A stretch of DNA of 64,000 bases from a candidate division WWE3 bacterium. GTDB taxonomy: Bacteria; Patescibacteriota; WWE3; UBA101185; UBA10185. The translations under genes and the position numbers were made by a program. Shown in pieces: positions 28,086 through 64,000 of this stretch. The stretch lies in contig JBPOHV010000001.1 in the NCBI GenBank assembly GCA_052035175.1, forward strand, positions 622,428 through 686,427, given 5' to 3'. Below the pieces are notes generated by a model, which did no database searches, was not told where the DNA came from, and worked only from the letters and a program-made list of their open reading frames with translations. Position 1 is the stretch's first letter, and each line of letters starts with the position of its first letter.

Positions 28086-28086
28086 T

Positions 28087-28619: not shown

Positions 28620-28620
28620 A

Positions 28621-34147: not shown

Positions 34148-34235
34148 AAATACACTTTTTGTAAAGTTTGTTTTGTGGGTGGGCCAAGAATATGCATAAA
34201 GCACGATTCTTGGCCCACGCCACGTCACCAGGGTT

Positions 34236-34594: not shown

Positions 34595-34616
34595 GGAATA
34601 GTCCTAGGACTATTCC
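34595..34616. repeat. perfect 22-bp palindrome GGAATAGTCCTAGGACTATTCC
   Basis: Exactly self-complementary. Lies just downstream (minus-strand sense) of peptide B. Confidence 0.8.
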
Positions 34617-34647
34617 CAGCCCCCCACAGAAAAAAAACCGATGCCCA

Positions 34648-34788: not shown

Positions 34789-34912
34789 GGCACCTCCTTT
34801 TCATAAATCACACGACCTAACGTGACTTATGAATTAGTGGAATTATTATTGATATTAGCATCGGGTACAGATGTATGGAAGGTCAGTCCTCGATGAGGAC
34901 TGACCTTCGGCT

Positions 34913-34939
34913 TGACTGACATAAGTCCTCATGTATAAT
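34913..34939 (+). promoter_or_regulatory. sigma70 promoter for rpmF (near-leaderless transcript)
   Basis: TTGACT, 15-nt spacer, extended -10 TGTATAAT. The ATG lies about 10 nt after the -10. Preceded by the perfect hairpin GAAGGTCAGTCCTC-GAT-GAGGACTGACCTTC. Confidence 0.5.
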
Positions 34940-34949
34940 GGGCTGCAGT

Positions 34950-35096
34950 ATGCCAGTACCAAAAAGAAAACATTCATTAGGAAGAGTCAGACGCAAAAGA
35001 CAAGAAAAAATGCGTAAGTCAGCTGTAATAGCAGTTCAAGACAAAAAAAGCGGAACTTACCATAGACCTCACGTAGAAGAAAAAGTTAAAATCTAA
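34950..35096 (+). CDS. rpmF: ribosomal protein L32
   Basis: [48 protein letters not shown] matches the bL32 pattern (MAVPKRKTS...HRV). Under 60 aa, so absent from the ORF track. Confidence 0.75.
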
Positions 35097-35098
35097 GC

Positions 35099-35518
35099 AT
35101 GAAATCAAAACTTGACCCACGTCACGGAGCGAGAAAACTTGCACTTTCTTCAATCTTTTGTTGGTTGTTTTCTGAGCCAGACCAGCGAATGACCTTAAAA
35201 CTCGCTGAAGATGTATTAGAAGAGCAAAGTGTCGACACAACATTGACAAACGAAATAGTCGAAGGCGTAAAAGTTCACAAATCTGATATTGATGATATAA
35301 TCCAAAAATGCGCGCCAGACTGGCCTTTAGATAAGATCGCACGTATAGACCTTGTCATATTAAGGATAGCAATTTTTGAGGTTCTTTTTGCAAAAAAGAC
35401 TCCACAAAAAGTTGCAATTGACGAAGCAATAGAACTAGCAAAGGAATTTGGAGGCGAAAGCTCATCTAAATTTATCAATGGGGTTCTAGGCACAGTAGTA
35501 CAAAATTATAAAATTTGA
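35099..35518 (+). CDS. nusB: transcription antitermination factor NusB
   Basis: [15 protein letters not shown] ... typical NusB helical fold sequence. Confidence 0.8.
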
Positions 35519-49274: not shown

Positions 49275-49622
49275 TTAGAATGCCCTCCCTTGCGGGAACA
49301 AGGGAGGGTGGTTCGAGCCGATTCGGCGGTACAGTTCGGTTTTTTCAAGCGCACTTATGTACGCTTGATAACCTATCGGCTCAATGTAGAGCCGAACCGT
49401 ACCGGGGTAATCTTTTTGGTACACCAAGTAAATAGGTGTACCTGTTTTTACGGCAGTATCGATCAAAATATCGATATCGCTATTATATGTCGACCCCCAG
49501 TCGACATACTCAACGGGTGGATTTGTTCCCACCCGAATCAGGATGCTATTATGGCTTGCAGCCGAAGCTGGCACAGCCAATAACAAAAGTAATGCGAGCA
49601 AAATCAAAACCCGTTTCATTTT
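49275..49622 (-). CDS. small secreted protein in a GC-rich segment
   Basis: GAGGAGAG SD. Signal peptide MKRVLILLALLLLLAVPASAAS. The 3' end of the ORF reads through a GC-rich hairpin, CCCTCCCTTG..CAAGGGAGGG. Confidence 0.45.
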   Translation of the reverse strand, partial: KMKRVLILLALLLLLAVPASAASHNSILIRVGTNPPVEYVDWGSTYNSDIDILIDTAVKTGTPIYLVYQKDYPGTVRLYIEPIGYQAYISALEKTELYRRIGSNHPPLFPQGRAF

Positions 49623-49832
49623 TTTCTCTCCTCTGGCTGCCGCCAGACTTTTCCCCCGAGGGGGATTCATGTTTTAAAAACAATCGATGCATTATGAATA
49701 TCACACCTTTCAAATAACTGCAAACTATAGGTTTACAAGCATAGTATAAAATCTATCAATAGCACTATAGGGTATTATGAGGTAGAAAACACATCAAAAA
49801 ATAACTTTTTTTGTATATCGAAAAATATTAAT

Positions 49833-50354
49833 TTAATTCACAACGCATCCAGAAACAAAACTCGTACAATCAACATCATTACACAACCCGCTAAAAGAAA
49901 CGTACTCATTAGCAATTAATCCAGCTTGTAAATCGGTGAAAGACAATTGTTCAAAATTGGGCAGCTTGACTGTTGATACCTCTTGAGGCCACGTACGTAA
50001 GCGATAATCATTTACATCACACGCCATTATTGCTTTTACATTTGATTGGTTAAAATTTGGTGGCCAAGTGACTTCGCCACTTATAAGATTTTGATCTTGA
50101 TCATAGTTAGTAATTTTCAAATAAACTACTTCATGCTCTGGATTAAATTCGATACCTTCGTATTTTTTTATAGTTTCTTTGAGTACTTGTTCTGGAGTGA
50201 CTGTTTTTGCAAAAGGGGAGTCAGATTCAGTTAAAGCATTTGTTTGTGTATCAGATACATTTGCAGGTTTTGTATAAATTTTGTACAGCAAAAACCCGCC
50301 TACACTTACTAATAAAGCTATACTCAACAATAGTAAAATTCTTTTGGACAGCAT
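49833..50354 (-). CDS. membrane-anchored/secreted hypothetical protein
   Basis: N-terminal signal-anchor. Confidence 0.4.
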   Translation of the reverse strand: MLSKRILLLLSIALLVSVGGFLLYKIYTKPANVSDTQTNALTESDSPFAKTVTPEQVLKETIKKYEGIEFNPEHEVVYLKITNYDQDQNLISGEVTWPPNFNQSNVKAIMACDVNDYRLRTWPQEVSTVKLPNFEQLSFTDLQAGLIANEYVSFSGLCNDVDCTSFVSGCVVN

Positions 50355-50434
50355 GTATTTATCTTAACATACGAATTACTATTCATCGGAATTAAACTAG
50401 CCTCGTAATATACACAGTGCTAATATAAGAGCAT

Positions 50435-51577
50435 ATGAATCAATATCTGCCCATTATTATTTCTGCAGGAAGTGCCTTCACTGTAGCAACAATCTTTTAC
50501 CTTAACATAATCGCAGCAATAAATAGTGAAAAAAAGAAAAATCAGCACATGCTAGACGGCGTTTTGGAATCGATTTTTACATTGACGCAAGACAACAAAC
50601 TTATTTTCGCAAATACAAATCTTCTTCAAATACTTGGGAAACCATTACGAGATATCAAAATGAAGAAAGTAGACGAAGTAGTAAAAATTATGGATAAAGA
50701 TGATAAGCAAATGCTTGCACGAGACTATGTAAACAAAAAACTTGTCGCAGGAGTATTTTTTGTCCACCCAAACGACGCTGAGCATAAGTATTTTGTAAAC
50801 CTTAAATCTACTCAAATCAAAAACACTAATGAAATTATGATAACCATGACCGACGTTACATATGAAAAACGACTCGAACAATCAAAAAACGACTTTATAT
50901 ACGTTACCTCTCACGAATTGCGCACACCGTTAACAATCATAAAAAGCTATTTGTGGATGCTAGTCAAAGACAATACAGAAAACTTATCTGACAAACAAAA
51001 AGATTATATAAAAAAGGCTTATACTGGCGCAGAAAGAATGTTGGAGCTCATCAATGATACTTTGAACATCGCACGAATCGAACAAGAAAAAGAAATGATA
51101 GCTTCGGAAGACATTAATATAAAAGAATTTCTGACTGAGGCAGGAGAAGAATTTACTGTCAAAACAAAAGAAAAGGACCTAGAGTTTAAACTTGAGATTC
51201 CAGATAGTATTCAAAATATATACGCCGACCGCAAACGCTTACGAGAAATTTTGAATAATTTATTTACAAATGCGCTCAAATTTACACGATTAGGCTATAT
51301 AAAAATACGTGTAAGAGACTTTGGATCTGACTTTGTCGAAATATCTGTAGTCGATACTGGTAAGGGTATTGATCCTGTAGATATACCCAAATTGTTCAAA
51401 AAATTTAGTCGCCTCGACAACACTTATCAAACTGTTGCAGAAGCCGGTGGTACTGGCCTAGGTTTGTATATCGTCAAAAGCCTCGTCGAAACAATGCGAG
51501 GGGGAATAGGTGCATATTCTGAAGGACTAGGGAAGGGGAGCACCTTCTGGTTTATCTTGCCAAAGAAAAAGCTCTAA
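50435..51577 (+). CDS. sensor histidine kinase (no adjacent response regulator in window)
   Basis: TM N-terminus, H-box SHELRTPLT, N-box NLFTNALKF, G-box GTGLGLYIVKSLVE. Confidence 0.75.
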   Translation: MNQYLPIIISAGSAFTVATIFYLNIIAAINSEKKKNQHMLDGVLESIFTLTQDNKLIFANTNLLQILGKPLRDIKMKKVDEVVKIMDKDDKQMLARDYVNKKLVAGVFFVHPNDAEHKYFVNLKSTQIKNTNEIMITMTDVTYEKRLEQSKNDFIYVTSHELRTPLTIIKSYLWMLVKDNTENLSDKQKDYIKKAYTGAERMLELINDTLNIARIEQEKEMIASEDINIKEFLTEAGEEFTVKTKEKDLEFKLEIPDSIQNIYADRKRLREILNNLFTNALKFTRLGYIKIRVRDFGSDFVEISVVDTGKGIDPVDIPKLFKKFSRLDNTYQTVAEAGGTGLGLYIVKSLVETMRGGIGAYSEGLGKGSTFWFILPKKKL

Positions 51578-51605
51578 ACAATATATTAATGTATGAGATT
51601 TGAAT

Positions 51606-52511
51606 TTAGTTTCCAAAAAGCTTGAAGTACCAGTCCAAAATGACTTGACCCCAAATCAATGAAAATACACTACCCATTATCAAAAATGGACCAAATGGAA
51701 TTGTATCTTTCATAGTCTTTTTCTTTGTTACGACTAAGACCAAGCTAATTACAGATCCCAAAACAAATCCTATAAATATAGCTAAGATGTTATATGGAAA
51801 TCCGTTGAATATACCGATTAATGCAGCAAGAGGCACGTCACCAGAACCCATACCACGACCACGAGTAATCCAGATCAAGAATGAGAAAAATAAAACTATA
51901 CAAAGTGTACTTACTAGCAAAATACCCAGATTCCATAAGCCAGAATACACATTTTGATGCCAATAACCTGCATCGTATAAATATTTACCAAATTCATCGG
52001 CTAACAAAGTCTTTCTAAAAATAAACATTGAAATAACAAAATTAACTACCAAGAACATAAGTGAAAAAATAATAGCTGGAAAAACTACTTTGCTAGGAAT
52101 AACTTTTTCTTTAGCATCTGTCATAAACAAAACTACAAAGAATGAAAAAACTACTGAAACAAAAACAAAACCGATGAATGGGTAAATACCTTGTGTAGAA
52201 TCTTGAAAAATATTTGTAATGTGTGCTGCTACAACAAAAAGTGCGCCTGTAAGAATTTCGGAAATTGGATAATACCAAGATAACTTCTCTGTACAATAAG
52301 AACATTTACCTTTTTGAAAAAGAAAGCTGAAAACTGGAAAAAGATTTTTCCATGAAAGTGGCTTATTGCAAAAATCACATTTTGATCTATCAAAAACAAT
52401 AGATCCACCTTTTAATAAACGGTCAGAAACCAAATTTAAAAATGAACCAACAAATAAACCAGATAAGAAAACAAGCCCGTAGTATATGTATAAGAGATAG
52501 TTTGAAATCAT
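51606..52511 (-). CDS. pilD: prepilin peptidase (A24 family)
   Basis: Paired CxxC (CDFC ... CSYC) zinc-binding N-domain and polytopic membrane domain. Lies downstream of the pilin gene. Confidence 0.8.
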   Translation of the reverse strand: MISNYLLYIYYGLVFLSGLFVGSFLNLVSDRLLKGGSIVFDRSKCDFCNKPLSWKNLFPVFSFLFQKGKCSYCTEKLSWYYPISEILTGALFVVAAHITNIFQDSTQGIYPFIGFVFVSVVFSFFVVLFMTDAKEKVIPSKVVFPAIIFSLMFLVVNFVISMFIFRKTLLADEFGKYLYDAGYWHQNVYSGLWNLGILLVSTLCIVLFFSFLIWITRGRGMGSGDVPLAALIGIFNGFPYNILAIFIGFVLGSVISLVLVVTKKKTMKDTIPFGPFLIMGSVFSLIWGQVILDWYFKLFGN

Positions 52512-52580
52512 GCGAGGATTGTAGCACTATGATTTCTTATGCACAATAAAAACTTTCTTACCTTATGCAGATAATCACGC

Positions 52581-52617
52581 GCCGCCTTGCATGCCTGAGC
52601 AGGCAAGCGGACGCATG
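52581..52617. repeat. GC-rich structured repeat, family B, copy 2 (inverted relative to 12551-12611)
   Basis: Reverse complement reads TCCGCTTGCCTGCTCAGGCATGCAAGGCGGCGC. About 31 of 35 positions identical to copy 1. Confidence 0.6.
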
Positions 52618-52650
52618 TCTACCTTCGTATAGTAAAAATGGATGAATGCA

Positions 52651-52709
52651 AAAAGCTATGCTCGGAAGCTTGCCTGTGAATACATGCAATGCTGAAGAGC
52701 ATAGCTTTT
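52651..52709 (-). terminator. rho-independent-type terminator or attenuator between pilin gene and pilD
   Basis: AAAAGCTATGCTC ... GAGCATAGCTTTT, a 13-bp perfect stem, followed on the minus strand by a T-rich tract. Confidence 0.5.
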
Positions 52710-52727
52710 GCGTAAAAACATAAAGCT

Positions 52728-53261
52728 TTATGGTACCAAAGTTAAATTTGTACCAACCTCGTATCTAGTAGCGCTATCGCCACCATCTACAGTGTACTTA
52801 GCTTGATTAGATAAATGTTCAAATTGAGCATTTAACTCATAACCTGATGCGGTAGATGCAAACTCATAAAAATATGTTGCATCGTTAGTTGGATCCAAGG
52901 GCAGAGCTGCAATATAATTTGCAAGTGAGCCAGTTCCTATTTGTACCCAACCAGTACCGTCAACTGCAGTTACTGTTCCAGAACCACTATTACTTGCGCA
53001 AGCACTGCAGTTTGCTCCAGTGATTTGCAAAGTGATAGCTTGTTCGGCCAAAGCTAAATTCAAAGCTTTATTCATAACTTCCAAGTCTTGAAGTCTTCTG
53101 GCGTCTCTACTCTTTTGCAAGAGTGAAACAGGATCAATTGCCAATGCTAAAACACCAGCTAAAACTGCGATAATAGCAATAACTACCAAAAGCTCGATAA
53201 GCGTAAAACCTGTTGATTTCTTTGTATATTTATTCATCATGTTCTGTTTCACCTCCTTCAA
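52728..53261 (-). CDS. type IV pilin (candidate major pilin)
   Basis: KSTGFTLIELLVVIAIIAVLAGV. Sits between pilC and the terminator plus pilD. Confidence 0.7.
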   Translation of the reverse strand: MKEVKQNMMNKYTKKSTGFTLIELLVVIAIIAVLAGVLALAIDPVSLLQKSRDARRLQDLEVMNKALNLALAEQAITLQITGANCSACASNSGSGTVTAVDGTGWVQIGTGSLANYIAALPLDPTNDATYFYEFASTASGYELNAQFEHLSNQAKYTVDGGDSATRYEVGTNLTLVP

Positions 53262-53315
53262 AATATCGAAAAACTTAATACTTAATCATAAACAACTAAT
53301 CAAAACTACAAGTAT

Positions 53316-54518
53316 TTATATCGCACTCGTAATTTTGTAAATCGGTGTGATGATTGCGATTATCAAAATACCTACCATACCTCCCAAAAGAATGAGAATG
53401 ATAGGTTCCAAAGCACCTGACAAACCTTTTACCAAATGGTCAACCTCACCATCAAAATAATACGATGACTTTTCAAAAAGTTTATCCATTTGACCAGTTT
53501 CTTCACCTACGTGTGCCATATCTCCGATAAAAGGTGGGAAAATTTTGTTTGACATAATATATTCTGACAAAGGTCTTCCTTTGCGCACATGCTCAGCAGC
53601 TTCGAGTGAAGCACGTTTATATGCATCATTAGACATAACTTCGCTTACTATTTCTAAAGCATCGACAATAGGAACTGCAGATGAAATAAGTAATCCCATC
53701 GTACGAGTAAATTGCGCATTTTCTTTCATACGATTTATTTTTCCAAAAACCGGTAATCTAAAAGAAATATCAGAAGCCAATTTTTTACCAGCTTCGCTAC
53801 TAAACAAAGTACGTAGACCCCAAACCGAAAATGCCATCAATCCCAAAACTGCAAATATATTACGAATAATAAATTCAGAGAAATTAATTAAGAATTGAGT
53901 TGATGTCGGTAGATCAACATCCAAAGACTTATACATCTCGGCTAGCTTTGGAATAACGAAAATCATCAATATAAAAAACACAGCGATCATCGCTACAAAA
54001 ACAACCACAGGGTATACCATTGCAGATTTGAATTTACCATTCAACTCACGTTCGTTTTCGAGTGTAACAGCAAGCCTTTCCAAAATTGTGTCAAGCTTTC
54101 CCGAAGATTCACCAGCTTTGACCAAAGATCTGTAAGTGCGTGTAAAAATGTTTGGATATCTGCCAAGACCAGCAGACAACGCAGAACCACCTTCAACATC
54201 GCGTAATACATCTAGAAGTATTTTTTTGAAATGCTTATTTGCTGACTGCTGTGCCAAAACATCCAAAGCACGTGAAACAGGTAAGCCTGAAGAAAGCATT
54301 GTTGAGAATTGGCGTGTAAACGCAGCAAGCTCACTTTGCGGAATCCCACGTAAGCCAACTATATGATCAATAACAGACTCTTTCTTTTCTTGTAATGCAA
54401 CAACAAACAAACCTTGTCCGCGCAATAAATCTACTGCTACTTCTTTTGAACGAGCATCGACAGTACCTTCTTTACGGAGTCCAGACTGCTCTGTTGCTAC
54501 ATACAAATATATAGGCAT
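53316..54518 (-). CDS. pilC: type IV pilus platform protein PilC (GspF family)
   Basis: Two GspF-like repeats with three TM segments. Confidence 0.85.
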   Translation of the reverse strand: MPIYLYVATEQSGLRKEGTVDARSKEVAVDLLRGQGLFVVALQEKKESVIDHIVGLRGIPQSELAAFTRQFSTMLSSGLPVSRALDVLAQQSANKHFKKILLDVLRDVEGGSALSAGLGRYPNIFTRTYRSLVKAGESSGKLDTILERLAVTLENERELNGKFKSAMVYPVVVFVAMIAVFFILMIFVIPKLAEMYKSLDVDLPTSTQFLINFSEFIIRNIFAVLGLMAFSVWGLRTLFSSEAGKKLASDISFRLPVFGKINRMKENAQFTRTMGLLISSAVPIVDALEIVSEVMSNDAYKRASLEAAEHVRKGRPLSEYIMSNKIFPPFIGDMAHVGEETGQMDKLFEKSSYYFDGEVDHLVKGLSGALEPIILILLGGMVGILIIAIITPIYKITSAI

Positions 54519-55591
54519 TATCTAGATTTTACTCCTTTCACAAGGCGTCTTAGCTCACCAACACGACTTGTATGCTTTGCAGCCTCTTCAAAAGTAATCA
54601 CATTGTTATTTACCAAATCAGCCAAGCTTCTCTCCATACTGATCATGCCCAAATGTAAACTGGTATCGATTACATTATCGATAAGATGTGGTTTACCTTC
54701 GCGTATAAGATTGCGCACAGCATCATTACCAAGCATCACTTCTACAGCAGGTATAACTTTTGAGTCTAGAGAAACTACTAATCTTTGTGACAAAACAACT
54801 TCCATAACCCCGGCTAATTGCTCTTTTACTTGATCTTGCTTGGCTTCTGGAAAACTAGAAATAATTCTCTCGATTGTCTGAGACGCAGAGTTCGTATGTA
54901 AAGTTGCAAATACCAAATGGCCAGTTTCCGCAATATTCAAAGCAGCTTCTACTGTTTCTGTATCGCGCATTTCTCCTACAAAGATAATATTTGGATCTTG
55001 CCTTAAAACCGATTTGAGAGCAGCAGGCCACGAATGGGTATCTATATACATTTCTCTTTGTTCGATAAGCGAAAGCTTGTTTGTAAAAACATATTCTATA
55101 GGATCTTCGACAGTAACAATGTGCTCAGCACGTGTCTCGTTAATGTAATCAATCATAGAAGCTATGGTAGTGGACTTTCCTTGACCTGTAGGCCCAACAA
55201 CCAGCACCAACCCTTGAGTCAAACCACACAGTTGTTTAACTGTGTCTGGTAAATGCAAATCTGAAAGTGAAGGGATATCTACTGGAATGTGTCTTAAAGC
55301 AACAGAAGAGTATCCGCGCTGATAATATGCATTTACTCTAAATCTAGATTTGCTACCCAACGCTACAGAAAAGTCTAATTCTTTATTTACCTCCAACAAT
55401 TCTTTTTGATCAGTTTCTAAGATTTGAGACAAGAAATATTCTATGTCTTCTAAACTCAAAGCTTGCATATCTTCCATTGGAACCAATTTTGTATTTACCC
55501 TGATTATAGGAACGCTACCTACAACTAAATGTAGATCTGATGCGTTTTGATCCATTATTCTTTCTAAAATTTTTGTTGCATTAAGTGGCAT
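54518..55591 (-). CDS. pilT: twitching-motility (retraction) ATPase PilT
   Basis: Walker A GPTGQGKSTT, Asp box, Walker B and His box. The 357-aa length is typical of PilT. Confidence 0.8.
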   Translation of the reverse strand: MPLNATKILERIMDQNASDLHLVVGSVPIIRVNTKLVPMEDMQALSLEDIEYFLSQILETDQKELLEVNKELDFSVALGSKSRFRVNAYYQRGYSSVALRHIPVDIPSLSDLHLPDTVKQLCGLTQGLVLVVGPTGQGKSTTIASMIDYINETRAEHIVTVEDPIEYVFTNKLSLIEQREMYIDTHSWPAALKSVLRQDPNIIFVGEMRDTETVEAALNIAETGHLVFATLHTNSASQTIERIISSFPEAKQDQVKEQLAGVMEVVLSQRLVVSLDSKVIPAVEVMLGNDAVRNLIREGKPHLIDNVIDTSLHLGMISMERSLADLVNNNVITFEEAAKHTSRVGELRRLVKGVKSR

Positions 55592-55603
55592 AAAAAAACC
55601 TAA

Positions 55604-57373
55604 CTAAGAACTTGATACACGCATTACTTCTTCCAAAGTTGTTACACCCTCTATAACTCTTAAGAAACCATCTTGTTGAAGTGTAACCATACCCTCATCT
55701 TTAGCGACTGATTCAATCTTGCTAGCAGGGCTATTTTCCAAAGTCATATGAGCAACTTCTGTAGAAACCCTCAAAACTTCAAAAATACCAACTCGACCTT
55801 TATAACCTGTATTACCGCATTTATCGCAGCCTTTACCTTTGTATAAACTAAGCTTTTCTTTACTCAATAAATCTATAAGCTTCGCAACTTCGTGATCTTG
55901 CGTCATCAAAACTTTATTGTCTTTAAGTGGTTTTAATGATGCTGTGATGTCTTCTGCAATTTCTGATGGTGCATCATAAGCTTCTTTACAATCTGGACAT
56001 ATGCGACGTACAAGACGTTGTGCTAAAACAGAGTTTATTGTTGAAGCCAACAAAAAGCTTTCAACGCCCATATCTAAAAGTCTAGGAATAGCACCAGATG
56101 AAGAATTTGTATGCAAAGTAGCCAACACTAAGTGACCGGTAAGAGCAGCGTGTACTGCAAGTTCTGCAGTTTCTGCGTCGCGGATTTCTCCGATCATTAT
56201 GACGTTTGGATCTTGACGTAAAAATGCACGCAACCCAGTTGCAAATGTAAGACCAGCTTGAGGATTTACTTGAACTTGATTTACACCAGGCACACGAATT
56301 TCAACTGGATCTTCTATAGTAACAATGTTTACTCTAACAGAATTTAATTTTGATAAAGCAGACGCCTGGGTGACTGATTTACCTGAGCCAGTAGGACCAG
56401 TAACCAATACCATACCTGTCGGTTTTAAAAGAGATTCTTCAAAACGACGCAAAGAAAGACCGCGTAATCCCAAATCTTTAAAACTGAAAACAACGCCTTC
56501 TTCACGCAAAAGTCTTATAACAACTTTTTCACCAAAGATCGTTGGCAAAGTTGAAACTCTCAAATCGACCGAAACTTTACCAACTTGAAACTTTATACGA
56601 CCATCTTGAGGAATACGTTTTTCGTCTATTTTCATACTTCCAGACAAAATCTTTATTCTTGCGATGATAGAATCGTGCATTTCTTTTGGAATTCTACGTT
56701 TTTCTTCCAAAACACCATCGACACGATAACGCAAACGTGAGTCTGATTCGCCTGGTTCCAAATGAATATCTGAAGCGCCAAGTTTGACAGCTGTTTCCAA
56801 AATCATACCTACAACACGCGCAATTGGTGCATCACGAATAGTAGCTTCGGTAAGTTCTTGATGAGATTCTTCAATTTTTAATACATTTTTCTCATCGCTA
56901 ATCTCTTGAAGTGCGGCACTTATCTCATCTGCGATTGCTTTTCCGTGTTGTTCATCTAAAAAGTGAGATATTTGATTTTCTAATGCGATAAGAGGAACAA
57001 TTTTATAACCACTTTTTCTTTCGACAAAATCGATTGTTTGCAAATCCAAAGGATTGCCCATAGCAAGTTTCAAAATATTGCCATCTAGGGCTACAGGTAT
57101 AACTTTGAATTTTTGCGTAAGACTAAGTGGAACATTTTCAAATAATTTTGGATTAATTTTAAAACCTGTTAAGTCAATGAATTCAAACCCATATGCTTCA
57201 CCAAATGCTTTGGCATAGTCTTCACTGCTTACATAACCACGTTCTTTGATTATTTCGGTTGTTGGTTTATCTGAATTTACATGCTCAAATTTGATAGCAG
57301 AAAGCTGATCGGTAGTCAGGAGCTTTCTTTCGAATAAGACATCTTCAATTGACTTTGGTTTATTAACACTCAT
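55604..57373 (-). CDS. pilB: type IV pilus assembly ATPase PilB (GspE family)
   Basis: GSPII N-domain, Walker A GPTGSGKS, and a C-terminal tetracysteine CPDC...CDKC. Confidence 0.85.
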   Translation of the reverse strand: MSVNKPKSIEDVLFERKLLTTDQLSAIKFEHVNSDKPTTEIIKERGYVSSEDYAKAFGEAYGFEFIDLTGFKINPKLFENVPLSLTQKFKVIPVALDGNILKLAMGNPLDLQTIDFVERKSGYKIVPLIALENQISHFLDEQHGKAIADEISAALQEISDEKNVLKIEESHQELTEATIRDAPIARVVGMILETAVKLGASDIHLEPGESDSRLRYRVDGVLEEKRRIPKEMHDSIIARIKILSGSMKIDEKRIPQDGRIKFQVGKVSVDLRVSTLPTIFGEKVVIRLLREEGVVFSFKDLGLRGLSLRRFEESLLKPTGMVLVTGPTGSGKSVTQASALSKLNSVRVNIVTIEDPVEIRVPGVNQVQVNPQAGLTFATGLRAFLRQDPNVIMIGEIRDAETAELAVHAALTGHLVLATLHTNSSSGAIPRLLDMGVESFLLASTINSVLAQRLVRRICPDCKEAYDAPSEIAEDITASLKPLKDNKVLMTQDHEVAKLIDLLSKEKLSLYKGKGCDKCGNTGYKGRVGIFEVLRVSTEVAHMTLENSPASKIESVAKDEGMVTLQQDGFLRVIEGVTTLEEVMRVSSS

Positions 57374-57466
57374 ATGGGCAGTTCTCTATGCAATATTATT
57401 GCAATATCTTCTTAATGATAACAAGTTGTATCTCTACCATCAATAATTTAAAGTATAATACCGAAT

Positions 57467-58117
57467 ATGGCGGCGATTTTTATATACGGAAGCGAGGATT
57501 CAGCTAGGCAAAACAAGCTAAACGAGTATATTGCACAATATTTTGAAAAAAAAGAGCATGCAGACTTACTAATAGTAGAAGCAGAGAAAGACAAGAAAAG
57601 CATCGGCATCGACCAAATAAAACAAATTAACCAGTTTAGTATAAAAAAACCATTTTCTGCTAACAAGAAAATATGTGCGATCCCTCATGCAAATAGTTTG
57701 ACTATACAAGCTCAAAATGCTTTGTTGAAAATTTTGGAAGAACACCCAAGTTATTTGGATATTTACTTACTAGCACCAAATGTAAGCGCAGTTTTACCCA
57801 CAATATTATCTAGGTGCAAAAGAATACGTATAAATGAGCAACAAGAAGTGTTTTCACAACAATTTTCTGATGTTTTTGATATTTCTATTGGACAAAGACT
57901 AGACTTAGCTGATGAGATTTCTGCGCAAACGCCTGAAGAAATTGCTGAAACATTCAAATCGTGGATTCAAATAATCAGGAAGCGACTACACCAAAATCAA
58001 GATGCTATGGCGTTTGCGCATAACACAAAACTTATAATGAAAGCGAAAAAAGACCTTGAAACCACAAATATGAATAAGAAGCTAATTGTGGAATGGTTGT
58101 TAGTTAACCTCACCTAG
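57467..58117 (+). CDS. holB: DNA polymerase III delta-prime-like clamp-loader subunit
   Basis: SRC motif (PTILSRCKRI), degenerate Walker A, AAA+ lid. Confidence 0.65.
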   Translation: MAAIFIYGSEDSARQNKLNEYIAQYFEKKEHADLLIVEAEKDKKSIGIDQIKQINQFSIKKPFSANKKICAIPHANSLTIQAQNALLKILEEHPSYLDIYLLAPNVSAVLPTILSRCKRIRINEQQEVFSQQFSDVFDISIGQRLDLADEISAQTPEEIAETFKSWIQIIRKRLHQNQDAMAFAHNTKLIMKAKKDLETTNMNKKLIVEWLLVNLT

Positions 58118-58142
58118 GGTAAAATCATTTGGCTAATTCTAT

Positions 58143-60110
58143 ATGACAAACTCTTACAGCTCAGAACAAATACAAGTACTCGAAGGTTTAGACGCAGTTC
58201 GTAAGCGCCCAGGTATGTATATTGGGTCTACAGGTGAACCAGGCTTGCATCATTTGATTACAGAAATAATCAATAACTCGATGGACGAAGCCATGGGCGG
58301 ATTTGCGACTCATATCAGGCTCGACTTTCTCAAAGATGGTTCCACTGCGATATACGACAACGGCCGAGGTGTTCCTTTTGATATTAAAAAAGAATACGGT
58401 GTAAGTGCATTGCAACTTGTTTATACCGAATTACACGCAGGAGGAAAGTTTGGTGGCGGAGGATATAAAGTAGCAAGCGGTCTGCACGGAGTAGGTTCGT
58501 CTGTAGTAAACGCACTTTCCGAGTGGATGCGTGTTGTTGTAAAACGAGGCGACAAAATAGTTATTCAAGAATACGAAAAAGGCGGAAAAGTTTTGCGCCC
58601 TGTTGAAGATCTAAATATAAAAAAACCAATTTCTAAAATAAAAGGTGTCGATGTAAATCTCGACTTGGAAAATTGGCAATACGAAAGCGGCACTATCGTA
58701 CAATTCTTACCAGACGCATCAATTTTTGAAACTACCGATTTTAAACTGAAATTCTTTTTGACACAGATAAAAGAGTACGCTTATCTTACACCTGGCGTTA
58801 AATTTGAAATAAATGACGAAAGAGTAGGGGAGCATTTGGTATTTTACTTTGAGGGTGGCCTCAAAGCTTACCTAAAAGCATTAAATAGAAATAAAAAGAT
58901 TATTAACGAGACTCCATTTGTTATACGTAAAGAAGTTGACGATGTAGATGTAGAAGTAGGTATTCAATACACTGATGCATACGGTCAAAACTTACTTAGT
59001 TTTGCAAATAATTTGCGTACACAAGAAGGCGGTACACATTTAACTGGTTTCAAAACTGCGCTTACAAAATCTATAAATGACTATGCCAAAGCGAATAATC
59101 TTGTAAAAGATACTGACAATGGCTTGATGGGTGACGACATTCTAGAGGGCATTACTGCTATTGTTTCTGTCAGGCTTGACTCAATGAAATTGCAATTTGA
59201 AGGACAAACCAAAGGCAAACTAGGTAGCTCAGTAGCAAGACCTGCAGTAGAAACTGTAGTAAAAGAAGGCTTAGAGCAATTTTTGGGAGAAAATCCAAAA
59301 GACGCCAAAGCTATCATCGAAAAAAATCTTATAGCTTACAAGGCAAGGCTTGCTGCCAAAGCAGCCCGCGATAGTGTTATTAGAAAAAGCGCACTCGAAG
59401 GTGGCGGTGTTTTACCTGGTAAATTGGCCGATTGCTCGACCAAAGACAAAGAAAAAAGCGAATTATTCATAGTAGAAGGAGACTCAGCAGCTGGACCTGC
59501 AAAAGACGGAAGAGACAGGGTGACTCAAGCGATATTACCGATGTTTGGAAAAATCATTAATACAGAAAAAGCTCGATTAGACAAAATTGTCGAGTCAGAG
59601 AAATTTAAAACTCTTATTATTGCAGTAGGCGGCGGTATAGGAGATCTTTATAATCCAGAACGCTTGCGTTACGGCAAAATAATAGTCATGGCTGATGCAG
59701 ACATCGACGGGCAACATATTATGACTTTGTATTTAACATTCTTTTATAGACATATGGTTCAACTAGTACAAGAAGGCCGAGTTTATCTGGCTGTTCCTCC
59801 TTTATACAAAGCAACATGGGGCAAAGAAAAGAAATACCTTTTTGACGATAAAGATTTAGAAGCGTTTAACAAAACACCAAACGGCCCAAAGGCTACTATT
59901 CAACGGTTCAAAGGTCTTGGTGAAATGAATTCTGACGAGCTATGGGAAACTACAATGAATCCTCAAACTCGAAGACTCAAAAAAATTCAAGTCGACGATG
60001 CAGCCAAAGCTGACGAAATATTTACTATGCTTATGGGTCAAGAAGTGGCCCCACGCAAACGCTTTATTCAAGCCAATGCCAAATACGCAAATATCGACGT
60101 TGCAGGCTAA
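58143..60110 (+). CDS. gyrB: DNA gyrase subunit B (topoisomerase IV ParE not excluded)
   Basis: GHKL ATPase motifs (LHHLITEIINNSMDEAMGG), TOPRIM EGDSAAG, and a C-terminal tail. Confidence 0.9.
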   Translation: MTNSYSSEQIQVLEGLDAVRKRPGMYIGSTGEPGLHHLITEIINNSMDEAMGGFATHIRLDFLKDGSTAIYDNGRGVPFDIKKEYGVSALQLVYTELHAGGKFGGGGYKVASGLHGVGSSVVNALSEWMRVVVKRGDKIVIQEYEKGGKVLRPVEDLNIKKPISKIKGVDVNLDLENWQYESGTIVQFLPDASIFETTDFKLKFFLTQIKEYAYLTPGVKFEINDERVGEHLVFYFEGGLKAYLKALNRNKKIINETPFVIRKEVDDVDVEVGIQYTDAYGQNLLSFANNLRTQEGGTHLTGFKTALTKSINDYAKANNLVKDTDNGLMGDDILEGITAIVSVRLDSMKLQFEGQTKGKLGSSVARPAVETVVKEGLEQFLGENPKDAKAIIEKNLIAYKARLAAKAARDSVIRKSALEGGGVLPGKLADCSTKDKEKSELFIVEGDSAAGPAKDGRDRVTQAILPMFGKIINTEKARLDKIVESEKFKTLIIAVGGGIGDLYNPERLRYGKIIVMADADIDGQHIMTLYLTFFYRHMVQLVQEGRVYLAVPPLYKATWGKEKKYLFDDKDLEAFNKTPNGPKATIQRFKGLGEMNSDELWETTMNPQTRRLKKIQVDDAAKADEIFTMLMGQEVAPRKRFIQANAKYANIDVAG

Positions 60111-60216
60111 ACCTAACAGTTTAAATACCACCCTATAGCTTTCTTATATATTTTTGATACAATCCCTATCATATATTCACTATGGGGATCATCGTCCCCG
60201 AAGGAGAAAAATAACG

Positions 60217-60867
60217 ATGAAAAAATTGATTGTTTTGGTTCTGCTTTTCGCAACTATGGTTGCGTTAGCAGGAATGCCCTCCCTTACGGGAGGAGCGACG
60301 GGCGGTGAACCCACCCCGACAAATGTTCCAAATTTGCCACCAACACCAACTCTGGTACCGGCGAATGGGTTGGAGCCAAAATCTTTTTTGGCGTTGGTCC
60401 AAAATGGACCAACCTTGGTGCCCCCAGTCCCACCGACTGGAACACCAACGGCAACTCCGACTGATCTACCAACCCCCACCCCAGCACCTTATCAAGAAAC
60501 AAAGTGCGGGCCGTTGCCAGAAGGCATTATTGACGGGTTTTATGATCCGGAATGGACGTCTATCTGGGCACAAAGCAATGCCATCGGCTGGACAGGGCCA
60601 GCTAGGATTGATGCCATGGAAAATGAATTCACTGTCCCAGGGGGGGATGCGGCAGTGTTTATTCTGACAGACCATGGTGCCATCTTCTGGGATCAAACCC
60701 AGGTCGATGGCCATGACCAAATGTCTGCGTGCCATACCAATATGGCACCAGATGAAAACACAGTGAACAAATGGGCACAAGATGCCCAAACAAATACTGG
60801 GGCTCCCAATATCTGGATTGTCACCATCATTGACGGTGACCTCCACGCGGTATTGTGGGCCCCATAG
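60217..60867 (+). CDS. secreted Pro/Thr-linker protein in a GC-rich island (copy 1)
   Basis: SD AAGGAG, a signal peptide and a PTPT linker. Paralogue of 61020-61595. The longer listed ORF start is upstream of the SD. Confidence 0.5.
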   Translation: MKKLIVLVLLFATMVALAGMPSLTGGATGGEPTPTNVPNLPPTPTLVPANGLEPKSFLALVQNGPTLVPPVPPTGTPTATPTDLPTPTPAPYQETKCGPLPEGIIDGFYDPEWTSIWAQSNAIGWTGPARIDAMENEFTVPGGDAAVFILTDHGAIFWDQTQVDGHDQMSACHTNMAPDENTVNKWAQDAQTNTGAPNIWIVTIIDGDLHAVLWAP

Positions 60868-60884
60868 TAAAAATATGTTAGGCA

Positions 60885-60942
60885 AAAAAGACCTTGTCGA
60901 GCCGATAGCGATATCGCATGACGAGGTCTTTTGCGTTGTATA
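60885..60942 (+). terminator. 58-bp repeat containing a terminator hairpin (copy 1)
   Basis: AAGACCTTGTC ... GACGAGGTCTT stem then TTGCGTTG. Near-identical to 61610-61668. Confidence 0.6.
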
Positions 60943-61019
60943 CATAAAAGCAAACATTGATATAATCCCTACTAATAATTCACGTGTGAGTACAATTACT
61001 TGCACAAAAGGAGCAAAAG

Positions 61020-61595
61020 ATGAAGAAGTCTTATTTAGTTCTGCTGATACCATTAGCAATGGTGATCTTAGCAGGCATGCCGGCCCTTACGAGCCAGGCA
61101 CAAGGTGGCGAAGCTACCCCTTCACCAGAACAACCCACAAAAAGTTTTCTAGTGTTCATGCCTGCAGTAATGCGGGCAGACACATATCAAGAAAGTTTTT
61201 GCGGGCCAGTGGAAAGCGGAGGCGTAATTTTGAATTACGAATCCAATTTCCCGGCGCTGCAAGCGCCAGAAGATCCCCAGTACACCCACATCGTTGGGTG
61301 GGCCAGTTGGTCTTATGTAACATATCAAGGCCAAAGTTGGTTGATTCCAGAAGGGGATGTTGCTGTTTTCATTACTCAGGCGAACCAGTCACTTGAGTTT
61401 TTTAACATGCAACTCGTTGAAGGACATGCTTTTATGGAAGCGTGTGCCGCTACAAAGTTCCCGCCTGGGCCAAGTCTCCTAGCATGGGGAGATAAAGCCA
61501 GAACTGGGACTGGCGTTGGCGGGCTGCTTTGGCTCATCACAATCACTGAAAGTGGTGAGCTAAAGGTTGATCCCTGGCCAGGGATCGTGCAGTAA
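61020..61595 (+). CDS. secreted protein in a GC-rich island (copy 2, diverged paralogue)
   Basis: Signal peptide MKKSYLVLLIPLAMVILAG. Shares CGP..G.I, PEGD.AVFI and EGHAFMEAC blocks with copy 1 and the same TTGATAYAATCCC promoter-like upstream sequence. Confidence 0.5.
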   Translation: MKKSYLVLLIPLAMVILAGMPALTSQAQGGEATPSPEQPTKSFLVFMPAVMRADTYQESFCGPVESGGVILNYESNFPALQAPEDPQYTHIVGWASWSYVTYQGQSWLIPEGDVAVFITQANQSLEFFNMQLVEGHAFMEACAATKFPPGPSLLAWGDKARTGTGVGGLLWLITITESGELKVDPWPGIVQ

Positions 61596-61609
61596 ATCTT
61601 TATGGCGCG

Positions 61610-61668
61610 AAAAAAGACCTCGTCGAGCCGATAGCAATATCGCATGACGAGGTCTTTTGCGTTGTATA
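61610..61668 (+). terminator. 58-bp repeat containing a terminator hairpin (copy 2)
   Basis: AAAGACCTCGTC ... GACGAGGTCTTT, an 11-bp perfect stem, then TTGCGTTG. Confidence 0.6.
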
Positions 61669-61695
61669 GATATATTTAATGAAATTCCGAGATAA

Positions 61696-62304
61696 TTAGT
61701 TTGCTAGCTGACCGTCAAAAGTTTTTTTGAAAAACTCATGAGCTTCTTTGATTATCTTGTAAGCGTCTTCTTTGTTACCCCAACCTTCGACTAATACCTT
61801 TTTGTCGTGTTGACCTTTGTATTTGAATTGAAGATCTTTGTATCTTTCAAAAAAGAAAGTGATTTCATCTCTTTGATGCGTACTCAAATCATTTATATCT
61901 TCGATATGTTTGTATCTTATATCATCAGCAGGAACTGCTAATATTTTGTCATCTTTGTCACCACTATCATTAAAAAGCATTACACCAATAGGTCTTACAG
62001 AAATAAGACACCCCGGAAAAGTTGGATAATGTACCAGGCACATAACATCGAGCAAATCATTGTCATGATCCCAAGTTTGTGGAATAGCGCCATATTCAAC
62101 AGGGTAGGGGAGTTTGGAAAATAAAACTCTGTCTAGTTTGATCAAACCAGTTTGAGTATGAAATTCGTATTTGTTTATAGAACCCATTGGAGTCTCGACC
62201 AACATATTAATTTCTTTTGGCGTATTATCTCCTACAGGTAAACCAAAGAGAGGATTAAACATAGCATGAAATACTGTATCATTAAGGTGTTTTATGTCAG
62301 CCAT
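61696..62304 (-). CDS. ppa: inorganic pyrophosphatase (family I)
   Basis: YPVEYGAIPQTWDHDNDLLDVMCL...DDKILAVPADD. Start set at MADIKH. Confidence 0.8.
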   Translation of the reverse strand: MADIKHLNDTVFHAMFNPLFGLPVGDNTPKEINMLVETPMGSINKYEFHTQTGLIKLDRVLFSKLPYPVEYGAIPQTWDHDNDLLDVMCLVHYPTFPGCLISVRPIGVMLFNDSGDKDDKILAVPADDIRYKHIEDINDLSTHQRDEITFFFERYKDLQFKYKGQHDKKVLVEGWGNKEDAYKIIKEAHEFFKKTFDGQLAN

Positions 62305-62388
62305 AGTAAAAGTGATATTACTACAATCAAAAAAGCTCTGCAACATTGAACCAACCTGCTAAACCTGGTACGATGTGTTAGCTCTGAT

Positions 62389-64000
62389 ATGAAAAAAGAT
62401 AAAGTCACACAATTAAATGAAGAAATCGAAGGCTCAACCTCACAAGGTACTATCCTAAATTCAGATATTTCAGAAGAAATGCAAAGGTCATACCTCGATT
62501 ATGCGATGAGCGTAATTGTATCTCGTGCATTACCTGACGTAAGAGACGGCTTAAAACCAGTTCACCGAAGAATAATTTATTCTATGGCTGAAAAAGGTTA
62601 TAACTCAACTTCAAATTTCAAAAAATGCGCAACGGTCGTAGGCGACGTCATGGGTAGATACCACCCTCATGGTGATAGTTCTATATACGAAGCACTCGTT
62701 AGGATGGGGCAACCATTTTCTTTGAGATATACATTTATCAACCCACAAGGAAATTTTGGCAACATCGACGGTGACCCTGCAGCCGCAATGAGGTACACAG
62801 AATGTAAACTTACAAAGCTAGCAGAAGAACTTTATCGAGACATTGACAGCGACACTATAGATTTTGTGCTAAATGACCTTCAAAACTATGAACCTACTGC
62901 ACTTCCTTCAGCTATACCAAATCTAATAATCAACGGCGCAGTTGGTATTGCTGTTGGTATGGCTACAAATATTCCACCGCATAATCTTGGCGAAATAATC
63001 GACGGTATAAGCTTGTTAATCGATACTGCCGAAAAGATCGGTACACCACCGGTAAAAGATGCAGTTGGTAAAGAAATACTAATATACGAAGGTAAAGTAC
63101 CTAGCGTATTTGCACAAGTTGCGGCAACCGAGTTTGTATCAAAAGCAACTGTAGAAGATTTGATCAAATATGTAAAAGGACCCGACTTCCCAACCGGCGG
63201 TATTATTTATGATCAAAAAGAACTTATGCAGGTCTACGCTACGGGACGAGGCCGAGTAGTAACCAGAGCTAGAACACAAATAGAAGAAGTAAAAGGTCAA
63301 ACACGCATAATTGTTAGCGAAATACCATATCAAGTAGTCAAAGCAACGCTGATATCAAAAATAGCTGACCTCGTTAAAGAAAAGAAGATTGAAGGAATAT
63401 CAAATCTACGCGATGAATCAAACAAGCAAGGAATGCGCATAGTAATAGAGCTTAAACGCGATGCAATTGCAAAAAAAGTTGAAAACCAATTGTTTAAGTA
63501 CACCGCATTGCAAAGTACATTTAACGCAAACATCGTTGCATTGGTAAATAATGAACCGCGCTTACTCACGCTCAAAATGATTTTGGAAGAATTTATCAAA
63601 CACAGACAAAGCGTAGTAGTAAGACGCACTTTATTCTTATACAAAAAAGCTAAAGAAAGAGAACATATCTTAATAGGATTGAAAAAAGCCTTGGATATTC
63701 TCGACGAAGTAATAGCGCATATTCGAGCCAGTAAAGACGCAGAAACAGCCAAAGCAGGATTGATAACCAAATTTGGTTTTTCTGAAATACAAGCTCAAGC
63801 AATCTTGGATATGCAATTACGAAAATTGGCAGCACTAGAACGAAAGAAGATTGAAGAAGAATTGGCAGAGATATTAAACACAATTAAATCGTTTGAAACT
63901 TTACTGGCTTCCCCTGAAAAGATTATTAAAACTGTAAAAGATGAACTACTTTCTCTTAAAGAGAAATATGGTGATGAGCGCAAGACAAAAGTTATAAAAG
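62389..64000 (+). CDS. gyrA: DNA gyrase subunit A, N-terminal part (continues beyond window)
   Basis: [33 protein letters not shown]...[16 protein letters not shown]. The frame is open to the window end. Confidence 0.9.

Follow-up and report, generated by a model that had tools for sequence, protein, structure and literature searches.

The stretch of DNA analyzed here (64,000 nucleotides (nt), hereafter referred to as the window; positions 622,428 to 686,427 of contig JBPOHV010000001.1, assembly GCA_052035175.1) belongs to a candidate division WWE3 bacterium and contains, between the gyrase gene gyrB and the pyrophosphatase gene ppa, which is itself followed by gyrA, an islet of approximately 1.5 kb (about 60154–61672) with two genes, designated A and B. 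The islet consists of two head-to-tail units, each with its own predicted promoter, leader and terminator, and according to the interpretation that we hold with slightly better than even confidence, it represents a lineage-specific pair of separately transcribed orphan genes for exported proteins, probably acquired and located in a variable spacer, whose mRNAs are proposed to be unusually stable. As a genomic islet it is ordinary, namely, a small lineage-specific orphan pair in a variable spacer; of most interest are the orphan exported domain, the conservation of the terminators as opposed to the divergence of the genes and, above all, the hyper-structured coding sequences (CDSs). Literature searches revealed no description of this locus, of this protein family or of hyper-structured mRNAs in Patescibacteria.

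Two exported-protein genes with separate transcription signals

The predicted elements of the two units were as follows:

60154–60180, forward strand: promoter/leader module of gene A, copy 1 of a 27-nt repeat; extended −10 element TGATACAAT at 60155–60163, then CCC
60183–60206, forward strand: leader stem-loop of gene A, UGGGGAU-CAUC-GUCCCCG, abutting the Shine–Dalgarno (SD) sequence AAGGAG at 60201–60206
60217–60867, forward strand: gene A, 216 amino acids (aa)
60884–60946, forward strand: terminator module, copy 1; A-tract, 13-bp stem (one U·G pair), internal loop, 5-bp stem and GNRA loop GCGA, then UUUUGCGUUGU
60957–60983, forward strand: promoter/leader module of gene B; extended −10 element TGATATAAT at 60958–60966, then CCC
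60984–61013, forward strand: leader stem-loop of gene B, 9 bp with loop CAAU, then SD sequence AAGGAG at 61008–61013
61020–61595, forward strand: gene B, 191 aa
61610–61672, no strand assigned: terminator module, copy 2; perfect 13-bp stem, GNRA loop GCAA

The products of genes A and B had 29% identity according to BLASTP (222 alignment columns, E-value = 1 × 10−22) and 37% identity over 180 aligned codons according to MAFFT, with identities of 0.53, 0.61 and 0.34 at the first, second and third codon positions, respectively. Both proteins start with MKK, followed by a hydrophobic core ending in A-L-A/G (A) or I-L-A/G (B), and inspection of the translations revealed Sec (signal peptidase I) signal peptides in both, MKK-LIVLVLLFATMVALA/G and MKK-SYLVLLIPLAMVILA/G; a cysteine lipobox was found in neither. 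Past the cleavage site, both proteins contain a conserved GMPxLT..GGE.TP stretch and a KSFL motif. In A these are followed by a long linker rich in Pro and Thr and by a C-terminal domain of 125 aa with YQETKCGP, in B by a short linker and a 136-aa domain with YQESFCGP. This C-terminal domain of 125–136 aa begins with YQE(T/S)xCGP, includes a second conserved Cys and is predicted to be beta-rich, while the mature proteins are acidic (isoelectric point 4.1–4.3) and Trp-rich. Judging from the codon-position divergence, the SD spacing, the signal peptides and the protein-level similarity to the homologue P0005 described below, both reading frames are genuinely coding, and, as read from the translations, their products are small, acidic, Sec-exported proteins of an orphan family. 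The YQExxCGP motif and the Cys pair define a new exported-protein domain, so far from two small-genome bacteria only; secreted and surface proteins are the main candidates for host interaction in such episymbionts. It should be noted that the block also holds antisense and out-of-frame open reading frames (ORFs) of 86–204 aa, which are by-products of GC-rich sequence.

Both units open with a predicted TGATAYAATCCC-type extended −10 promoter (TGATAYAAT / TGnTAYAAT) followed by a CCC discriminator; in both, TGn is combined with a TATAAT-like hexamer, and the spacing to the gene is suitable, as in promoters of the sigma-70 extended −10 type. The promoter-like sequence TTGATAYAATCCCTA was found at 60154 and 60957 and at no other site in the window, and the upstream direct repeat to which it belongs reaches 27 nt with 78% identity between the units. 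The gene B promoter scored 10 of 12 consensus matches in the promoter scan with the TG present, and its −35-like hexamer is the 3′ tail TATACA (60939–60944) of terminator copy 1; the gene A promoter has a weak −35 region, and reading of the sequence revealed no terminator hairpin between the gyrB stop codon and this promoter. In each unit, a leader of approximately 50 nt follows, the stem-loop of which abuts a strong SD sequence. The leader stems differ in sequence between the units, and five of the seven aligned pairs are kept via changes on both sides.

The terminator modules are 63 nt long and 95% identical, occur in two copies only in the window, and fold with predicted free energies (dG) of −31 and −39.6 kcal/mol (z = −6.4 and −8.5). 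They differ at three positions (T/C, G/A and C/G), one of which exchanges U·G for C-G in the stem, another GCGA for GCAA in the loop, while the third lies outside the hairpin; the predicted plus-strand RNA structure is therefore preserved. Both modules present the G+C-rich stem-loop and U-run of predicted intrinsic terminators, although the consensus terminator scan missed them, its loop limit being 8 nt versus the 21 nt enclosed by the 13-bp stem. Copy 2 follows the ppa stop codon at a distance of 24 nt, has a T6 run on the minus strand and, as judged from its fold, can terminate both gene B (plus strand) and ppa (minus strand); the minus-strand dG was −29.0 for copy 2 and −21.3 for copy 1, which has an A·C mismatch and on which no gene converges. 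The terminator pattern had no match in viral or metagenome contigs. A diversity-generating retroelement was not indicated either: the sole long repeat is this post-stop terminator, with differences of T/C, G/A and C/G, and no reverse transcriptase was found among the neighbors.

The promoter modules are 803 nt apart and the terminator modules 726 nt apart. The sequence TTGTATAGATA... after terminator copy 2 matches the start of the A–B spacer, TTGTATACATA..., and therefore the repeated unit runs from the −35 region to the terminator tail, in agreement with the alignment of the units. Adjacent paralogues in the same orientation with repeated non-coding junctions constitute a tandem duplication. 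The features listed in an earlier note on this DNA, made from the sequence alone, were all located at the coordinates given or close to them. The note was borne out in describing two paralogous signal-peptide proteins, one of them (gene A only) with a Pro/Thr linker, each preceded by the same promoter-like sequence, and in regarding the additional ORFs of the GC-rich block as spurious; its 58-bp repeat with an 11-bp-stem terminator is indeed a near-identical repeat, but the sizes are 63 nt and a 13-bp stem plus a 5-bp upper stem.

Composition, distribution and history of the pair

The G+C content of the window was 36.7%, and 59 other ORFs had an average GC of 0.360 ± 0.029 and an average GC at third codon positions (GC3) of 0.274 ± 0.044, whereas GC was 0.518 in gene A and 0.495 in gene B, with GC3 of 0.479 and 0.453, respectively. 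The composition z values of the two genes ranged from +4.1 to +5.4 (+4.1 and +4.7 for GC3), and none of the other native ORFs, including the pilin gene, which is likely highly expressed, had GC3 above 0.34. Recoding with native codon usage gave GC of 0.456 and 0.432 and GC3 of 0.29; about half of the GC excess corresponds to amino-acid composition (rich in Pro, Thr, Gly, Ala and Trp, poor in Lys and Arg), and the remainder is synonymous. The synonymous shift was strong in four-fold-degenerate families and in Ile (ATA 0.05 versus 0.44 in the background). The GC-richness is limited to the two CDSs, with values of 0.35, 0.36 and 0.39 in the gyrB–A, A–B and B–ppa spacers, and ppa has a native composition (GC 0.344, GC3 0.286). 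Consequently, the synonymous-site composition of genes A and B is foreign to the genome, and the regulatory DNA is host-like.

The location of the pair was compared with 25 related loci, 18 of which cover both gyrase genes; the window GyrB shares 58–71% identity with its counterparts in metagenome-assembled genomes that carry the labels candidate division WWE3, Saccharibacteria or Patescibacteria, in line with a source among the small-genome Patescibacteria (CPR) of the WWE3 type. In all 18 relatives with a covered gap, gyrB and gyrA have the same orientation and lie 0.6–7 kb apart, and in 15 of them the gap contains a pyrophosphatase gene, which belongs to one of three unrelated families. The contents of the spacer in the relatives were as follows:

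family II (DHH/DHHA2) pyrophosphatase: nine relatives
membrane H+-pyrophosphatase: four relatives, and a fifth (L009) cut by the contig end
family I pyrophosphatase: one relative (L010), as in the window
pilin-like gene only: three relatives
weak DHH-like ORF: L011

As most relatives have a pyrophosphatase in the gap and ppa has a native composition, ppa belongs to the resident content of a conserved slot rather than to the insert. The slot looks like a case of non-homologous replacement of a pyrophosphatase at one locus, and for WWE3-like genomes it would be a clear example of such replacement. Homologues of genes A and B were detected by tblastn in none of the 25 related loci and hence in none of the 18 with a covered gap. 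The surroundings of the islet in the window were as follows:

58143–60110, forward strand: gyrB, left flank (Pfam domains DNA_gyraseB, Toprim and GyrB_C)
61696–62346, reverse strand: ppa, family I inorganic pyrophosphatase (Pfam E-value = 1.7 × 10−51)
from 62389, extending past the window end at 64000, forward strand: gyrA, right flank (Pfam DNA_topoisoIV, E-value = 1.7 × 10−151)

The likely start of ppa is 62304, and the product of the Logan gene call has 202 aa; the gene is divergent from gyrA and convergent with gene B. Further upstream of the islet, a type IV pilus cluster and holB are located. Several claims of the earlier note are to be revised in the light of these data. The gap of 2.3 kb was correctly given (2278 nt), whereas the assumed normal adjacency of gyrB and gyrA does not apply to the 18 WWE3-like relatives, in none of which the two genes are neighbors. 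The gap is GC-rich only as regards the two CDSs, the leaders, spacers and ppa being at 0.34–0.39, so that ppa has no place in a GC-rich island, and it is divergently oriented relative to gyrA but not to gene B. The comparison of GC and codon usage that the note had proposed did reveal a deviation of genes A and B at synonymous sites from the 59 other ORFs.

Three observations on the related loci are recorded separately. In the WWE3 isolate SURF_46 (L019, 10015–10900), gyrB is directly followed by an 850-nt block with 55–59% G+C and no convincing ORF. The block contains a promoter of the TTGACA type and ends in a hairpin with a T-run; its folding z was −3.5, and Rfam yielded no match at E ≤ 1. 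It may represent a large non-coding RNA, or else an insert that has decayed at the same hotspot. In another WWE3 relative (L022, 9338–10539), GyrB is split in frame by approximately 400 codons with a Cys start and a ...VHN/S end, inserted after the conserved EGDSAGG motif, which is the sequence signature of a putative intein. The closest long-contig relative of ppa (L032, 368–1099; 76% identity) has a C-terminal extension of approximately 45 residues, nearly all of them Cys, Asp, Glu or Lys (…ECECDECCECDKCDNCKKCDCKDCKCEEGKCDCKDCDC…), and its neighbors are mnmA-like and sortase-region genes, not gyrase genes.

Beyond these loci, word-seeded searches of 5.8 billion clusters with alignments of the pair and of the four domains and with P0005 returned nothing beyond the queries themselves (genes A and B; P0005). 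An exhaustive HMMER search of 1.84 billion protein representatives yielded one true homologue, P0005 (E-value = 5 × 10−4), a protein of 351 aa with a signal peptide, PT linkers and two tandem YQExxCG domains; the search started from P0005 returned P0005 only, and no relatives of genes A and B were found in viral contigs. Two other weak matches were rejected as artefacts, namely, the Cys/Trp repeat protein P0003 (low complexity and repeats) and P0004, in which PNLADQPT repeats align to the linker. The contig of P0005, of uncertain taxonomy, has 39% G+C and carries genes for sortase, PMT, Rho and Obg. In the P0005 gene, GC is 0.497 and GC3 0.472, as against GC3 of 0.31–0.36 in its neighbors and GC of 0.31–0.33 in its flanks; the gene is preceded by GTTATAATCCCGC and followed by a hairpin terminator. 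In the 28 loci scanned, TATAATCCC was found at four sites only, two of which are the same P0005 locus counted twice, and because of this rarity the promoter context common to P0005 and the pair is unlikely to be due to chance. The domain identity was 30% between A and B, 21–22% between A and the P0005 domains, and 24–26% between B and the P0005 domains. A donor in a high-GC phylum, as hinted at in the earlier note, was not supported, as the sole homologue among the 1.84 billion representatives resides in a low-GC genome. The same genome contains further GC-rich genes (0.45–0.57) in AT-rich DNA (L027, 2668–5390), two of which are paralogues of each other (34% identity) without a known family, while ORF 4092–4544 (150 aa) has excess CDS structure (z = −4.4).

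At third codon positions, genes A and B were 34% identical, which is near saturation (25% by chance), and the copies are about as diverged from each other as from the P0005 domains; on this sequence evidence, the duplication is judged to be old. Had it taken place on site after a transfer, GC3 should by now have drifted towards 0.27, and no such drift was seen; the pair may have arrived already duplicated, or its composition may be held by selection, and the duplication is probably older than the residence at the gyrB–gyrA site. The contrast between terminators with 95% identity and diverged genes implies that the terminators are not neutral relics, so that gene conversion, recent copying or constraint is required. 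Thus, of the sequence of events previously suggested, horizontal acquisition followed by tandem duplication, the tandem paralogues, the foreign composition and the absence from 18 relatives were retained, but the order was not favored. The scenario that we propose is that a promoter-plus-gene unit would have arrived horizontally, its source being the genes available among other low-GC bacteria with small genomes (Patescibacteria or their mobile elements) and not a high-GC phylum. The pair would stem from an old duplication, probably before its arrival at the present site, and the terminator modules would have been homogenized later by gene conversion or constrained as bidirectional terminators. 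Horizontal transfer in Patescibacteria is frequent and occurs mostly within the phylum (PMC12455944).

Hyper-structured coding sequences

Analysis of predicted folding revealed whole-transcript z values of −8.2 for gene A and −9.2 for gene B versus −0.25 for ppa and +1.0 for holB. Relative to dinucleotide shuffles, the CDSs of A and B had z of −6.5 and −6.6, and an ORF elsewhere in the window (49275–49622, minus strand) had −11.8, with a mean of −0.49 ± 1.2 and a minimum of −2.9 in 47 native ORFs. Relative to synonymous-codon shuffles, which hold the protein sequence and codon usage constant, the values were −6.8 (A), −5.5 (B) and −9.3 (49275–49622), as well as −4.8 and −4.9 for two small membrane-peptide ORFs (34239–34385 and 34648–34788, minus strand), while ppa, holB, the pilin gene and P0005 had −1.1, +0.8, −2.8 and −0.9, respectively. 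GC-matched controls from relatives ranged from −0.3 to −2.2, which rules out an artefact of GC content, and one GC-rich gene of the P0005 genome reached −4.4. Perfect hairpins with stems of at least 6 bp occurred 8.8–14.3 times per kb in the hyper-structured genes versus 3.2 per kb window-wide, all of them with different sequences, and folding was stronger on the sense than on the antisense strand in four of the five hyper-structured genes. The possibility that demand for helices drives the high GC3 was rejected, as GC3 of paired and unpaired positions equaled the synonymous-shuffle expectation. The lack of any GC3 enrichment in helices makes GC-richness and structure two distinct features.

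The CDS of gene A is bracketed by a 23-nt inverted repeat (arms 60165–60187 and 60860–60882, the right arm spanning the stop codon) with 20 of 23 positions complementary, which was equaled in none of 2000 shuffles. Its arms form the closing helix of the predicted transcript fold, and its orientation is the same in the Logan assembly; gene B has no equivalent. This repeat may reflect pairing of the mRNA ends or be a relic of recombination or inversion.

We infer from the predicted folds that the hyper-structure may have been selected because it makes the mRNAs of exported proteins very stable. Densely packed hairpins, a stem-loop in the leader and, in gene A, pairing between the 5′ and 3′ transcript ends would result in long-lived mRNAs, and these in turn would permit a sustained high output of two extracellular or surface proteins, plausibly for dealings with the surroundings or a host. 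A broader proposal, which we put forward only tentatively, is that, here and perhaps in other Patescibacteria, some genes for small exported or membrane proteins form a class of their own, whose CDSs are GC-rich and packed with hairpins at synonymous sites. Its basis may be an undescribed extreme form of mRNA stabilization or structure-based regulation in slow-growing, ribosome-poor cells; alternatively, these features may have been left by a mutational process that makes perfect inverted repeats in acquired genes, such as template switching. If real in vivo, the phenomenon would be a testable case of selection on whole-mRNA structure in bacteria, and it serves as a warning that GC-rich islands of AT-rich genomes can encode proteins and be structured as well.

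Other structured regions of the window are the following. The most structured CDS, ORF 49275–49622 (minus strand; region 49275–49670, GC 0.48, GC3 0.50), encodes a signal-peptide protein of 114 aa (MKRVLILLALLLLLAVPASA...) that shows no relationship to genes A and B and matched nothing in Pfam, PHROG or NCBIfam; the ORF has a leader hairpin and a 10-bp 3′ hairpin and is located just upstream of a 1061-aa ORF in the pilus region. A family link of genes A and B to this ORF or to the GC-rich paralogues of the P0005 genome was rejected (hhalign probability below 1%). At 34150–34860 (minus strand), two tandem small ORFs, 34239–34385 (48 aa) and 34648–34788 (46 aa), are part of a GC-rich block in which folding z reaches −13.8. 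The product of each is a single hydrophobic helix with a basic end, and each has a strong SD sequence and flanking hairpins; in these sequence features they resemble membrane toxins of type I toxin–antitoxin loci (Rfam gave only sub-threshold noise at 33900–35300). At 6572–6850, a hydrophobic mini-ORF of 27 aa (MKKKFLIGFLIVIGIGLIIKKALDYDI, ATG at 6609, SD sequence TAAGGAGG) is followed by a strong hairpin, and a further structured GC-rich stretch (z = −7.9) is located directly upstream of tRNA-Pro. At 27250–28620, a 1.4-kb ORF-free block (GC 0.43–0.48, z to −10) contains three tRNA genes, for two of which ARAGORN gave abnormal anticodon loops (tRNA-???), and no Rfam match at gathering thresholds was found outside the tRNAs. 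In the whole window, Rfam at gathering thresholds identified tRNAs only.

Alternative explanations and comparison with known systems

Several results weigh against the interpretation of the islet as an acquired pair with stable mRNAs. Neither a donor nor a mobility gene, tRNA target or target-site duplication was found at the locus, and composition is the sole positive sign of transfer; moreover, a GC-rich CDS inside host-like regulatory DNA also fits a native gene with selected composition, and the two-fold-degenerate codons for Asp, Asn, Glu and Tyr in genes A and B retain the native A/T preference. The relatives are distant (GyrB 58–71%), so that absence from them does not date the insertion or exclude long residence, and in the nearest ppa relatives (75–78% identity, metagenome scan) ppa lies away from the gyrase genes, which makes them uninformative on the site. 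On the protein side, no profile matches at E ≤ 0.01 were obtained in Pfam, NCBIfam, PHROGs or PDB sequences, and AlphaFold models from four-sequence alignments had a predicted local distance difference test score (pLDDT) of 54.9 and 53.5; a Foldseek search of a model of such low confidence against PDB gave nothing below E 0.1, and its output is regarded as meaningless. On the RNA side, GC3 in helices was no higher than in shuffles, P0005 is GC-rich without hyper-structure (z = −0.9), which makes two anomalies of what might be one phenomenon, and, the leader stem-loop and terminator aside, the internal helices are mostly at non-homologous positions in A and B. As regards the features expected of a genomic island, the atypical synonymous composition and the absence from the site in relatives were found, and mobility signatures and a donor were not: the neighbors are gyrB, ppa and gyrA, there are no flanking direct repeats, PHROG matches or viral relatives, and no donor lineage with nesting homologues was identified, the sole homologue P0005 being in another low-GC genome.

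Among the alternatives, the one that survives best, although we consider it doubtful, is that no transfer took place and that A and B are native and lineage-specific, evolve fast and belong to a genome-wide class of genes for small exported proteins, their GC-rich and hairpin-dense CDSs being under selection, e.g., for mRNA stability. It would accommodate the three other ORFs of the window (49275–49622, 34239–34385 and 34648–34788, all on the minus strand) with a GC-rich CDS, leader hairpin, strong SD sequence and extreme structure, the end of GC-richness at the CDS boundaries, the native bias of two-fold-degenerate codons, and the approximately half of the GC excess that comes from amino-acid composition. 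However, GC3 has no preference for helices, P0005 is equally GC-rich without excess structure, the genes are absent from all sampled relatives, and no other native ORF, the pilin gene included, has GC3 above 0.34.

Improbable in our estimation is the capture of a single gene from a high-GC phylum (e.g., Actinobacteria or Chloroflexi), inserted between adjacent gyrB and gyrA and duplicated in place, as might be suggested by the high GC and GC3 of both genes, the Pro/Thr linker, the promoter and terminator duplicated in tandem, and the absence of the pair from relatives. No homologue from a high-GC lineage was present among 5.8 billion clusters or 1.84 billion representatives, the sole homologue is in a low-GC genome with the same AT-rich promoter motif, and gyrB and gyrA are not adjacent in this lineage; furthermore, divergence between the copies is as great as that from the foreign homologue, with synonymous sites near saturation, and the GC3 signal should not have survived an in-place duplication of that age.

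GC-rich islands in AT-rich genomes are often structured non-coding RNA genes, and folding z from −6 to −9, typical of structural RNAs, together with several spurious ORFs in other frames, would be consistent with the ORFs of A and B being mere by-products of such genes. This explanation is very unlikely, as the divergence tracks codon position, with the third position most diverged, and canonical signal peptides and SD spacing are present; protein homology extends over conserved Cys, Trp and Gly, including in P0005, which lacks the RNA structure, the internal helices are not conserved between the paralogues, and no Rfam family matched at gathering thresholds.

Barely any probability is assigned to mobile gene cassettes of the integron-like or site-specific type, in which the 63-nt imperfect palindrome would be an attC-like recombination site. 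A conserved palindrome of approximately 60 nt does stand behind each otherwise diverged ORF, recombination between the copies would release gene B as a 726-bp circle, and the spacer varies among relatives. However, gyrB, ppa and gyrA, and no integrase, stand beside the array, there are no RYYYAAC...GTTRRRY core sites (the nearest is GTTGTAT, with no inverse core on the 5′ side of the stem), the perfect stem lacks attC extrahelical bases and reads as an ordinary terminator, each unit has its own promoter, and the element is absent elsewhere in the window and from viral and metagenome contigs.

An assembly artefact (expanded or collapsed repeat, or chimeric join in a metagenome bin) is likewise most improbable: the source is probably a metagenome-assembled genome and a short repeat flanks gene B, but the terminator copies differ at three positions and the genes are 29–37% identical, which excludes a collapsed or expanded duplicate, and Logan contigs (SRR34217543; a separate assembly, possibly of the same reads as the NCBI genome and hence perhaps not from an independent sample) match the window with 100% identity at 50217–60940 and 61639–64000, that is, across the gyrB–gene A junction and from terminator copy 2 into ppa and gyrA. 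Their ends at 60940 and 61639 fall inside the terminator copies, only within the 33-nt identical core, as expected of a k = 31 graph at a true two-copy repeat.

Returning to the acquired pair, ORFan islets obtained by transfer, such as Patescibacteria islands (PMC12455944), share with it the atypical synonymous composition, the absence from relatives, the variable spacer and proteins without known families, and within-phylum transfer fits the single homologue; in contrast, the islet described here is 1.5 kb in size and has no integrase, transposase, tRNA target, flanking direct repeats or donor, and its atypical composition is restricted to the CDSs. Tandem paralogues of secreted or surface proteins with their own promoters and terminators are likewise arranged head-to-tail in one orientation with duplicated regulatory modules and junctions, and the signal peptides and low-complexity linkers found here are typical of extracellular proteins, but simple duplication does not predict the contrast between CDSs with 29–37% identity and terminators with 95% identity. 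Integron cassettes with attC sites resemble the units in the conserved palindrome of approximately 60 nt at the 3′ end of each ORF and in the short array, but here integrase, core sites and extrahelical bases are lacking, the units have their own promoters, and the element occurs twice only. As in bidirectional Rho-independent terminators between convergent genes, a G+C-rich hairpin lies between an A-tract and a U-tract, and copy 2 folds on both strands, whereas the hairpin here stands out by its length and its two tiers (13 + 5 bp, GNRA cap), the U-tract on the plus strand contains an interruption (UUUUGCGUUGU), and copy 1 has no convergent partner.

Mobile palindromic elements are known to invade CDSs in AT-rich genomes, for example, the Rickettsia palindromic elements and the GC clusters of yeast mitochondria, and GC-rich hairpins within ORFs of an AT-rich genome are found here too, but these hairpins are all distinct and form no repeat family. 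Repeat-family elements of this kind, including miniature inverted-repeat transposable elements, were accordingly rejected, as the 14 perfect hairpins of the islet differ and blastn of the islet against itself and the loci revealed the terminator pair only. Some long-lived bacterial mRNAs are stabilized by 5′ stem-loops and 3′ hairpins, e.g., that of ompA and those with S-layer gene leaders, and the leader stem-loop beside the SD sequence and the strong 3′ hairpin of the exported-protein genes described here are similar to them. To our knowledge, CDS structure of the magnitude observed has not been described for bacterial protein-coding genes, and it is in this respect that genes A and B differ from ompA and the S-layer leaders: the predicted excess structure runs through the whole CDS, in synonymous sites, with z of about −6.

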